Part shown: positions 7,470 through 8,820 of the stretch, one piece after another
Position numbering within the stretch: the stretch's first letter is position 1
Layout: the number at the start of each line of letters is the position of its first letter
Origin: a virus
Taxonomy: Duplodnaviria > Heunggongvirae > Uroviricota > Caudoviricetes
Length of the DNA stretch: 46,496 nucleotides
Virus record (IMG/VR): IMGVR_UViG_2630968543_000003
Strand: one strand, 5' to 3'
Position numbers and translations under genes: made by a program
The notes under the pieces: model-generated
Databases searched by the model: none
What the model was told of the DNA's origin: nothing
What the model saw: only the letters and a program-made list of their open reading frames with translations

Positions 7470-7913
7470 TTATGCTTCCTCCTGATTTTGTTTATAAGCA
7501 CCAGTCAGTAACCACATTGGATCGCAGCCAAGAAGATTTGCCAATGGGATAATTTTGTCGCAAGTAGGAATTGCTGAGTCATTTTCCCATAACGAAACAG
7601 CCTGAACAGTCACTCCAGCACCGCTGGCAATATGATGTTGTTGAAGACTTGCTGATTTACGCGCTTGGAGAATACGTTGACCGAAAGATAATGCTGGGGA
7701 ATTACTAGCGCTAACTTCTTTGGTAAATAAATCAACATTAGCGCCGGGAGCGCTACTATCTGTAAAGGAATTCATAGTTGAAGAGATGATGTCTTGTGCA
7801 ACATCTAAGAGGTTGATGACGTCATGGTTTGAAGCGGTACCGCCTAATAGTGCCGCTTGAGCACAAATCAACAGAGAGTTTACGGAATAAGAGTCATGTT
7901 TATCATTTAACAT
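7470..7913 (-). CDS. HTH (XRE-family) transcriptional regulator with the HTH at the C-terminus
   Basis: C-terminal FGQRILQARKSASLQQHHIASGAGVTVQAVSLWENDSAIP matches the Cro/C1-type helix-turn-helix pattern; ATG at 7913 with GAGGTGA RBS 5 nt upstream. Confidence 0.55.
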   Translation of the reverse strand: MLNDKHDSYSVNSLLICAQAALLGGTASNHDVINLLDVAQDIISSTMNSFTDSSAPGANVDLFTKEVSASNSPALSFGQRILQARKSASLQQHHIASGAGVTVQAVSLWENDSAIPTCDKIIPLANLLGCDPMWLLTGAYKQNQEEA

Positions 7914-7914
7914 T

Positions 7915-7953
7915 ACATTCACCTCACTTGTTTTTACTTGCTGAGGTGAATGT
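7915..7953 (-). promoter_or_regulatory. perfect 12-bp inverted repeat (ACATTCACCTCA, 15-nt spacer, TGAGGTGAATGT) overlapping the RBS of the HTH gene
   Basis: Arms at 7915-7926 and 7942-7953 are exact reverse complements; on the minus-strand mRNA the downstream arm contains the GAGGTGA Shine-Dalgarno of the ATG at 7913. Confidence 0.45.
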
Positions 7954-8025
7954 AGCGCTATGCGTTATTCTTGACAATAGCAAAATGCTAATATTTGCTG
8001 TTTTTTTTATAGTGCGTTGTATTTA

Positions 8026-8481
8026 TTATTCATTTTCGTCTTTGTCGATCGGCATTCTTGATGCTTTAACAGCCATTAGCTCATCAAGTAGTTTGTCAAA
8101 ATTACGTTTCTTTTCAGATAACTCACTGATTATCCTGTCTTTTTCGCTTTCAGGCATTTGTCTGAATAACTCAATAAGTCGAGTCTCTCTTTTAGTTAGT
8201 TGCTGTTCATCAATAGTGGTCTCACCAGTCTTTTCCCTCATTTTAGCTAGATGCCATGGGGAATCCAGCAATGAGTGGGGGATGTCAAACCATCCTTCTG
8301 ATAGGCTCAGTCGCCCCTCGAGTTTTCTAGCGAGAGCAGTTCCCATATTTCTGCGCTTAGTCATTATTTGGCTTATAAGTGAGGGTGATATCTCACATTT
8401 TAACGCCAGATCTGTCTGGGTTAAGCCGCTGCGTTGGATTACCGTCTGTAGATTTTTTAAGCGAATATCTTTGATTTCCAT
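8026..8481 (-). CDS. prophage repressor, RacR/CI-like, HTH only (no S24 peptidase domain)
   Basis: N-terminal HTH (LTQTDLALKCEISPSLISQIMTKRR); start taken as the only in-frame ATG at 8481 (track ORF extends to a TTG at 8568); divergent from a Cro-like gene across an operator-rich gap. Confidence 0.6.
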   Translation of the reverse strand: MEIKDIRLKNLQTVIQRSGLTQTDLALKCEISPSLISQIMTKRRNMGTALARKLEGRLSLSEGWFDIPHSLLDSPWHLAKMREKTGETTIDEQQLTKRETRLIELFRQMPESEKDRIISELSEKKRNFDKLLDELMAVKASRMPIDKDENE

Positions 8482-8494
8482 GCTTGTCTCATTG

Positions 8495-8553
8495 TTAGCT
8501 AAATGCTTTACAGCGTATTGCTGTATTGTGATCTCATGTGCTAATGTTAGCAC
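8495..8553. promoter_or_regulatory. operator-like palindromes in the divergent repressor/Cro promoter region
   Basis: TTAGCTAA at 8495-8502 and GTGCTAATGTTAGCAC at 8538-8553, with a further GCTAA half-site at 8557-8561. Confidence 0.4.
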
Positions 8554-8574
8554 GTTGCTAATAACCAATACAGT

Positions 8575-8820
8575 ATGGGGTTTTTTATGTCCAGTGTATT
8601 GCTCTCAATCAGAGGAGTCATGAGCGCGGATGAATGGAGGCGGCTGGCACAGTTATCTGGGACTAGCGTTGCATACCTGAACCAGATGGCTCTGGGTTTT
8701 AGGCGCCCCTCAGTTGCAATGGCTGAAAGAATTGAGGAAGCGGTATCTAAAGTTTCACCAACCCTCAAATTATCTAAAGAGAGCCTCATTTTTTCTCCAT
8801 TACGGAAAACAAATAGTTAG
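8575..8820 (+). CDS. Cro-like HTH protein (rightward early gene)
   Basis: 81-aa ORF (alternative ATG at 8587) with HTH-like LAQLSGTSVAYLNQMALGFRRPS; divergent from the repressor. Confidence 0.5.
   Translation: MGFFMSSVLLSIRGVMSADEWRRLAQLSGTSVAYLNQMALGFRRPSVAMAERIEEAVSKVSPTLKLSKESLIFSPLRKTNS

Follow-up and report, generated by a model that had tools for sequence, protein, structure and literature searches.

We analysed a 46,496-nucleotide stretch of viral DNA (IMG/VR record IMGVR_UViG_2630968543_000003; this whole stretch is called the window below) and found that the region between about 7470 and 8820 is the lysis/lysogeny switch (immunity module) of an Escherichia coli prophage with a repressor of the DicA/Gifsy type, a type of switch that is already known. 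The repressor, Rep, carries no peptidase domain through which it could be cleaved, and just downstream of its gene lies that of a second helix-turn-helix (HTH) regulator, HTH2, whose ribosome-binding site is predicted to be masked by a fold-back RNA hairpin in transcripts that read on from rep. Taken as a whole, a non-cleavable Rep switch with a fold-back-silenced HTH2 and no cognate LexA-controlled antirepressor is the explanation that we favour, with a confidence that lies slightly on the positive side. The five features that the initial annotation had picked out from the letters alone are all present, at or near the places it had given for them; what is new is the operator set and its conservation across genera, a Cro-like gene that had escaped annotation, and the recognition of HTH2 as a conserved partner of several repressor types, with a covarying hairpin embedded in its promoter as predicted insulation in the Rep cassette.

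A repressor of the DicA/GtgR class

Rep matches a single Pfam model, HTH_3 (residues 16-65), and belongs to phrog_5736 (E 6e-60). An AlphaFold2 model computed from the family alignment (mean predicted local distance difference test score 75.5) is all-alpha, with a five-helix HTH domain (residues 1-66), a disordered linker (71-92) and a C-terminal domain of helix-turn-long-helix form (helices 97-108 and 111-142). Foldseek comparison of this model to the PDB returned 5d50, the Rep-Ant complex of SPC32H, as the top match (E 1.1e-4), and SPC32H Rep is also the sole match at E < 0.001 when the sequence is compared with solved structures by phmmer (E 4.4e-4, residues 3-94). The C-terminal part leads elsewhere: residues 85-139 match the C-terminal part of the NCBIfam DicA model (positions 72-129; E 3.6e-10), and BLASTP gives 40% identity to K-12 DicA over 45 residues (95-139) and 25% identity to GtgR of Gifsy-2 over 119 residues. 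The motif LFRQMPESEK is invariant or nearly so among 18 family members (LFRQMP is invariant in the 18 sequences) and has counterparts in DicA (LFNALPESEQ), GtgR (LFNQLPEAEK) and SPC32H Rep (ALPQEEK). Rep therefore shows the pattern of the DicA/GtgR type, an N-terminal HTH_3 followed by a short helical C-terminal domain with LF..LPE.E(K/Q) in a protein of roughly 135-160 residues, and on sequence and model we assign it to this class, in which an HTH is joined to a short helical oligomerisation domain and no peptidase is found.

The initial annotation had described the repressor as RacR/CI-like, with an HTH but no LexA-type peptidase. The absence of the peptidase is borne out, as searches of Pfam and NCBIfam and the AlphaFold2 model revealed no S24 peptidase or cryptic cleavage domain in Rep and none was among the Foldseek matches listed, while the CI of a sister prophage in strain 1296KP, used as the positive control, does match the LexA/UmuD models. 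The cleavage dipeptides AG and CG are likewise absent from all 151 residues. Because an S24 domain is lacking by sequence, model and fold search, Rep is predicted to be incapable of RecA-stimulated autocleavage in the manner of LexA or lambda CI. The kinship to RacR had to be dropped: BLASTP of Rep against K-12 RacR gave no match at E <= 1, and a RacR identity is ruled out for want of detectable similarity. Among sequenced phages, residues 1-71 of Rep alone align, with 39% identity, to the CI proteins of H-19B, BP-4795 and Stx1 phages, and full-length Rep occurs in none of the records of a 50,697-record phage collection.

Predicted operators on both sides of rep

The exact sequence TAGCA-N3-TGCTA is present in two copies in the 46,496 bases, one on either side of rep (7978-7990 and 8548-8560), compared to 0.02 copies expected; a count of two was not attained in any of 100 shuffles. 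These two perfect predicted operators are each set within a 21-bp element that recurs, inverted, at the other (81% complementary). In the divergent gap, where operator-like palindromes had been noted at 8495-8553, we found four at 8496-8560 (Table 1), and the predicted promoter PR is embedded among them such that its -35 element and start region are covered; its counterpart in the Salmonella locus reads TTGCTG-17-TAATAT. The predicted promoter PL, on the other side of rep, was reported by a promoter scan, and both TTG..A-17-TACATT and TTAGCATTTTGCTA are kept in all Rep-type loci. Operators and promoter position are maintained in loci from Salmonella, Enterobacter, Klebsiella and Pantoea in which Rep is 52-97% identical, and this conservation across genera fits the Rep recognition region SPSLISQIMTKRRNMG, which is near-invariant in the family. 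By these comparisons Rep, Cro and the predicted operators are conserved together across four genera. We infer that the right operator region (OR) overlaps PR, which would drive the Cro-like gene, and that the left operator region (OL) lies at PL, which would drive HTH2 and the left operon.

Divergently from rep runs the Cro-like gene, with a weak HTH_3 match, which is unannotated in RefSeq (PGAP) for the identical region of NZ_CP069990. It has homologues of 49-83% identity in the same position in four other loci, with an invariant stretch SGT..YLNQ.ALGFRRPS, and shares its N-terminus (MSxVLLSIR) with the homologue in the Enterobacter locus L006. The gene, recognised by position and sequence, completes the anatomy of the switch and corrects the initial annotation. 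Right after it, a perfect 14-bp palindrome, TGTGACATGTCACA (8822-8835), is centred on the ATG of a 39-residue open reading frame (ORF; 8828-8947). The core of this palindrome, GTGACATGTCAC, is preserved at loci of Enterobacter, Salmonella and Klebsiella, even those with other flanks and another downstream ORF, but not in strain 1296KP. The palindrome may mark a junction between modules or serve as a binding site.

As a separate observation, arrays of the same operator type (TTAGCATTTTGCTA, TTAGCATAACGCTAA and CTGCTAAA) were seen in four loci from Pantoea, Enterobacter and Sodalis (L142, L157, L182 and L204), in another genomic context and without an HTH2-type leader, which suggests, as far as sequence goes, a wider group of repressors with Rep-like DNA specificity.

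HTH2, a conserved partner of the repressor gene

The second regulator, which had been noticed just downstream of the repressor as a protein with a C-terminal HTH, is confirmed. HTH2 matches HTH_3/HTH_19 at residues 81-143, belongs to phrog_4836 (labelled 'CII-like regulator') and is modelled as a two-helix hairpin (residues 8-48), a disordered linker (49-72) and then the HTH, which superposes on the N-terminal domain of P22 C2 at 0.9-1.2 Å. Its gene is the first of the leftward early operon. A homologue lies about 90-110 bp after rep in all six Rep-type loci, and homologues occur at the same distance after S24-type CIs (in 1296KP, phages ASU11 and phi467, L225 and L228) and after DicA-like repressors of 126-134 residues (L226 and L229), such that in each of the related loci examined the repressor gene is immediately followed by HTH2, irrespective of repressor type. 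From its position we conclude that HTH2 is a conserved, uncharacterised gene in the place held by N in lambda.

The sister prophage of 1296KP (L015) is near-identical to the window outside a swapped cassette that extends from about 7550 to about 8985 and brings in HTH2', a cleavable CI and another cro in place of most of HTH2, Rep, Cro and a small ORF; the breakpoints lie within the last 20 codons of HTH2 and within the first codons of a 102-residue ORF. The HTH half of HTH2 comes in at least five sequence types that are shuffled independently of Rep and its operators, as illustrated by the window and L013, in which Rep and OR are near-identical and the HTH types of HTH2 are different. No non-coding motif tied to the HTH2 type of the window was found, since the k-mers common to the four loci with this type all lie inside the HTH2 coding sequence. 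In the mitomycin-induced phage ASU11 the HTH2 homologue (L019 3252-3965) is annotated as 237 residues, with two tandem HTH domains of differing sequence types after the N-terminal domain.

A predicted RNA hairpin over the HTH2 ribosome-binding site

The inverted repeat between PL and HTH2 (Table 1) would form a 13-bp stem in the sense RNA, in which the 5' arm UACAUUCACCUCA (7954-7942) pairs with the 3' arm UGAGGUGAAUGUA (7926-7914); the 3' arm holds the HTH2 Shine-Dalgarno sequence, GAGGUG, and ends beside the AUG. A 61-nt RNA with both arms folds at -23.1 kcal/mol (z -6.45; none of 200 shuffles folds equally well), as compared to -0.9 kcal/mol for RNA from the predicted +1 (7943 downward) that has no 5' arm. 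In an alignment of 10 distinct sequences, 99.1% of the cells pair versus 34-47% in slid registers; the loci of Salmonella and Pantoea have three pairs altered on both sides (UUU/AAA for ACC/GGU), and three cells are G-U, two of these being C-to-U changes opposite G.

The 5' arm overlaps the -10 hexamer of PL, and the predicted +1 (7942) falls after the arm in all Rep-type loci. Because of this overlap, a transcript started at PL should lack the 5' arm, which would be contained only in transcripts that arrive from upstream via rep, and no terminator-like site was found in the rep-HTH2 gap. For three Rep-type variants, the computed probability that the segment from Shine-Dalgarno to AUG is unpaired was 0.15, 0.23 and 0.27 in read-through RNA versus 0.74, 0.67 and 0.63 in RNA from +1.

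That the fold-back design extends to all HTH2 loci turned out to be only partly true, as a clear contrast in accessibility is limited to the Rep-type loci. The contrast is moderate in L225 and L228 and absent in L226 and L229, where strong terminators follow the repressor gene and the ribosome-binding site is not sequestered; among the non-Rep loci with such a terminator, this makes two out of three without sequestration, which we count in favour of the preferred explanation. We also considered the arms as an operator for HTH2 and rejected this, since loci with differing recognition helices have identical arms, the loop varies between 15 and 19 nt, and the C-to-U changes preserve G-U pairing on the sense RNA alone. 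The variable loop and the constancy of the arms across HTH2 recognition helices thus favour an RNA element.

LexA boxes and the DinI-like gene

The initial annotation had proposed, from an antirepressor-like gene (3885-4634) and a DinI-like gene at the right edge, that the prophage is induced by an antirepressor and not by cleavage. Both genes are there (Table 1), and the non-cleavable class of Rep agrees with the general proposal; what did not hold up is the casting of these two genes as its agents. A search for LexA boxes over the whole prophage yielded convincing ones solely at the DinI-like gene, beyond the end of the window. Within the window, nothing stood above noise: the best hit of a position weight matrix built from E. 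coli SOS boxes (14.8) is located in a tail gene and has a score that shuffled sequences also reach; exact CTGT-N8-ACAG does not occur, and one-mismatch boxes number 20 versus 14.8 expected. Nor did six related Rep-type loci have a LexA-like box scoring at least 14 within 6-10 kb of rep.

The DinI match covers residues 1-81 of 82, below the curated equivalog cut-off, and identity to Gifsy-2 DinI is 39%. In the promoter of this gene are two adjacent LexA boxes (scores 16.9 and 15.7), 1-45 bp beyond the right window end (L002 5472-5520), one of which is an exact CTGT-N8-ACAG; the attR junction and a 22-codon 5' fragment of mlrA follow the boxes. The 117 nt from the dinI stop to a terminator contain no ORF longer than 31 residues; the Gifsy arrangement dinI-antirepressor-irsA is therefore absent, and the LexA-boxed gene stands alone, without a downstream antirepressor ORF. 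Homologues of GftA, IrsA and SPC32H Ant were found neither in the window nor in the right flank (SPC32H Ant by tblastn against the window: best E 1.4), and the sole IrsA homologue, in the Salmonella locus L004, comes without dinI or a LexA box.

Weighing the explanations

We propose the following sequence of events, whose mechanistic steps go beyond the anatomy of the region. With no terminator in the gap after rep, transcription of rep in the lysogen would run on into HTH2; in this read-through RNA the anti-Shine-Dalgarno arm would fold back and block HTH2 translation, and transcripts started at PL, which would not carry the arm, should leave HTH2 translatable. Since the hairpin would silence read-through but not PL transcripts, HTH2 would be a regulator of the early lytic phase whose expression lysogens must avoid and which, once repression is lifted, most likely locks the lytic state in. 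Rep would not be inactivated by RecA-stimulated autocleavage, nor would a LexA-controlled antirepressor be encoded alongside, and the most likely routes of induction would be a trans-acting antirepressor from a co-resident prophage, as in the crosstalk of Gifsy and Fels-1, or a stochastic or SOS-independent loss of Rep activity.

Several points weigh against this explanation. The promoters, transcript starts and binding of Rep are predictions, and the role given to HTH2 comes solely from its position and insulation. At lambda PRM an operator centred near -42 activates; about -42 is also where the centre of the perfect OL operator falls relative to PL, and by analogy Rep could activate rather than repress PL. 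Independent covariation events in the hairpin are few (one triple compensatory change in two loci and three G-U cells), and the design is not general, the accessibility contrast being absent in 1296KP and phi467. Finally, as antirepressors are small and diverse, the prophage may encode one that has gone unrecognised.

Among the rival explanations, the one closest to the initial annotation holds that the ORF6N-domain protein is the cognate antirepressor that inactivates Rep upon SOS, with the DinI-like gene marking the pathway. The ORF6N domain, strong matches to PHROG 'anti-repressor' families (labels that are annotations, not tests), the precedent of Fels-1 FsoA, an antirepressor encoded in a left operon, and the LexA boxes of the dinI-like gene speak for it, but the ORF6N gene follows an SPFH gene by 43 bp and overlaps the next gene, with neither a regulatory gap nor a LexA box of its own, and, as it lies within the left early operon behind PL, Rep itself would silence it. 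Moreover, ORF6N is the sole domain detected in the protein, P22_AR_N/P22_AR_C and ANT (KilAC) being absent; nothing is encoded downstream of dinI; the identical protein (WP_001028556.1) accompanies a cleavable LexA-family CI in the 1296KP sister prophage; and in its place other Rep-type prophages encode Rha, Bro-N or no counterpart. That ORF6N triggers the Rep switch is thus not supported, and we regard this explanation as improbable; the protein may, by analogy with FsoA, act in trans on other prophages. Better placed, though still unlikely, is the idea that HTH2 itself antagonises Rep once PL fires, by contact through its N-terminal hairpin or by competition for DNA, and so creates a positive feedback that makes derepression irreversible. 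HTH2 alone among the proteins is found together with Rep at every locus, the type of its N-terminal domain switches along with the repressor cassette (in the 1296KP swap and across the immunity types examined), and the predicted hairpin would insulate it against expression in the lysogen. Yet HTH2 is predicted to be under Rep control and therefore cannot be the primary trigger, related N-terminal types stand beside both S24-type and DicA-like repressors, its HTH type shuffles independently of Rep and the operators, and physical linkage by itself could account for the co-variation.

It is also conceivable that Rep activates the HTH2 promoter in the lysogen, as at lambda PRM, and that HTH2 is made there to serve as a second immunity or exclusion factor. 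The OL geometry relative to the predicted promoter, with an operator centred near -42 and a weak site over the -10, and the variable 'recognition' region of the HTH, which suggests diversifying specificity, would suit such a role, but lysogens would then also transcribe the left operon, with xis and int, from this promoter, its -10 element is overlapped by the weaker operator, and the hairpin design argues for silencing in the lysogen; we consider this quite improbable. We give equally little credence to the view that the prophage is effectively non-inducible, with Rep as a permanent silencer like DicA in Qin or RacR in Rac. In keeping with it, the LexA searches of the window and six related loci disclosed no SOS link, and full-length Rep is in no phage isolate of the sequenced collection, whereas sister phages with an S24-type CI were recovered, one by mitomycin C; against it, the integrase, excisionase, replication, Q, head and tail genes look intact, and absence from phage collections is weak evidence as the Rep cassette is rare (19 of 5,426 genomes). 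The inactivation of Rep by a partner protease of the ImmA/IrrE/CapP kind, to which a weak similarity of Rep to CapH might point (PADLOC, E 5e-5), is hardly credible, since no M78/COG2856 (ImmA/IrrE-type) protease was detected in the early-region ORFs scanned or listed beside rep in related loci.

Prophage context

Table 1. Genes, predicted promoters and operators, and the RNA hairpin of the prophage (window coordinates)
Feature	Position	Strand	Details
Integrase gene	75-1361		
ORF6N-domain protein gene	3885-4634	-	ORF6N (PF10543) E 1.4e-12; PHROG 'anti-repressor' families
HTH2 gene	7470-7913	-	147 aa; RefSeq start; in-frame upstream GTG at 7922
RNA hairpin	7914-7954	-	inverted repeat between PL -10 and HTH2 start
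Predicted PL	-35 7977-7972; -10 7954-7949	-	TTGTCA, 17-nt spacer, TACATT; +1 near 7942
OL, weaker predicted operator	7953-7965		overlaps PL -10
OL, perfect predicted operator	7978-7990		TAGCAAAATGCTA; abuts PL -35
rep	8026-8481	-	151 aa; RefSeq start; mechanical ORF extends to 8568
OR, weaker 13-bp predicted operator	8496-8508		TAGCTAAATGCTT
OR, weaker 13-bp predicted operator	8511-8523		CAGCGTATTGCTG
Predicted PR	-35 8518-8523; -10 8542-8547	+	TTGCTG, 18-nt spacer, TAATGT; +1 near 8554; from position and conservation
OR palindrome	8539-8552		TGCTAATGTTAGCA; overlaps the operator at 8548-8560
OR, perfect 13-bp predicted operator	8548-8560		TAGCACGTTGCTA
Cro-like gene	8587-8820	+	77 aa; divergent from rep; weak HTH_3 match
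DinI-like gene	46248-46496	-	right prophage end; NCBIfam DinI E 6.9e-17

The prophage is an N-less lambdoid element of the helicase/primase type, integrated at mlrA (yehV) in E. coli. In NZ_CP069990 it sits between mlrA (yehV) and btsS, and its right end is marked by the DinI-like gene and the mlrA 5' fragment. A DEAD-box helicase and a toprim primase take the place of O/P as replication genes, a set of the kind known from Shiga-toxin phages as non-lambdoid ('Eru'-type) replication modules (PMC8951638). The 2-kb region around the switch is 100% identical in seven complete E. coli genomes and is at least 80% covered in 19 of 5,426 genomes. A genome-contig search for related loci gave no relatives, and 17-mer scans of public collections returned chiefly chance matches, with eight true loci recovered.

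Other parts of the window deserve mention in their own right. Downstream of Q (15641-16232) lie three tRNAs, the small RNA (sRNA) STnc100 (131.7 bits) and AsxR ('anti stx2 sRNA'), the last with a match at its gathering score; this set is the scaffold that flanks stx in Shiga-toxin phages, and stx genes are absent here. A moron, the porin gene annotated ompC (13729-14871, minus strand), separates the Q antiterminator from the tRNA cluster. In the left operon, a ParE-like toxin ORF (6140-6545, minus strand; PF24732, E 3e-17) overlaps an upstream 71-residue ORF, with which it may form a toxin-antitoxin pair; related loci likewise have ParE_like genes in their left operons. Upstream of the helicase gene, 413 bp without annotated genes (9260-9672) contain short direct repeats (GGGAGGCTGGCAGCC / GGGAGGCCACCAGCC, and GGTTTAAAGGT.CC) and may be an origin region. 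Known RNA families searched in 6800-9800 gave no match.

Discussion

Non-cleavable repressors are already known; this prophage stands out in that no LexA-controlled antirepressor of the kind to be expected was recognised, and it may thus rely for induction on co-resident prophages or on a cue outside the SOS response. The mode of induction of such elements matters because it decides toxin release and gene transfer: relatives of this prophage occupy the yehV/mlrA site that is used by Shiga-toxin phages, and the prophage itself has the stx-flanking scaffold (Q, tRNAs and the AsxR sRNA). The hairpin, for its part, would be a simple way in which a phage could silence an early lytic gene despite read-through from the repressor gene. 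As a tentative generalisation, about which we have considerable doubts, HTH2-type proteins might form an unrecognised class of early 'commitment' regulators that occupy the N position of N-less enterobacterial lambdoid prophages and are paired with any repressor; those of the Rep type would be silenced by a fold-back hairpin in prophages that lack an SOS input of their own and need other prophages or a non-SOS cue.

The closest parallels come from Salmonella, where the Gifsy repressors are not cleaved but inactivated by small LexA-controlled antirepressors, as shown by Lemire et al. 2011 (PMC3121763), who named DicA, RacR and many E. coli homologues as candidates for antirepressor control and described the crosstalk of Gifsy and Fels-1, in which antirepressors act in trans between prophages. 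Like Rep, the repressor of the Gifsy-2 pair GtgR/GftA (also GfoR/GfoA and GfhR/GfhA) has about 140-150 residues with an N-terminal HTH and a helical C-terminal domain, carries the motif LF.QLPE.EK and lacks an S24 domain, and Gifsy-2 resembles this prophage in its divergent cro-like gene and in carrying a LexA-boxed dinI homologue as well. Unlike Gifsy-2, the window has no gftA/gfoA-like gene or dinI-antirepressor-irsA operon, its dinI stands alone at the far right, and the HTH2 gene has no equivalent in Gifsy-2. DicA/DicC of Qin in E. coli K-12 is similar in being non-cleavable, in a C-terminal domain akin to that of Rep and in its small divergent Cro-like partner, but the N-terminal HTH of Rep is akin to H-19B CI and SPC32H Rep and not to DicA, whose HTH resembles that of HTH2, and downstream of dicA lies ydfABC-dicF-dicB without HTH2. 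Of the solved structures, SPC32H Rep-Ant (PDB 5D50) matches the N-terminal domain best in both sequence and fold, and a small antirepressor with a LexA-boxed gene inactivates the SPC32H repressor; SPC32H Rep differs in having 198 residues with an extra middle domain, and the window has no Ant homologue.

With lambda CI/Cro the region shares the divergent repressor and cro genes and the several pseudo-palindromic operators that lie, mirrored, over the promoters on both sides of the repressor gene. It differs from lambda in that Rep is without an S24 domain and hence without RecA-mediated cleavage, N is absent with HTH2 in its position, and CII is not recognisable. The predicted control of HTH2 translation recalls fold-back inhibition in IS10 and IS50, in which only transcripts begun upstream of the element's own promoter carry the arm that pairs with the ribosome-binding site. 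The logic of the hairpin would work alike in the two settings, although the sequences are unrelated and the biology is another, since here the read-through comes from a prophage repressor gene.

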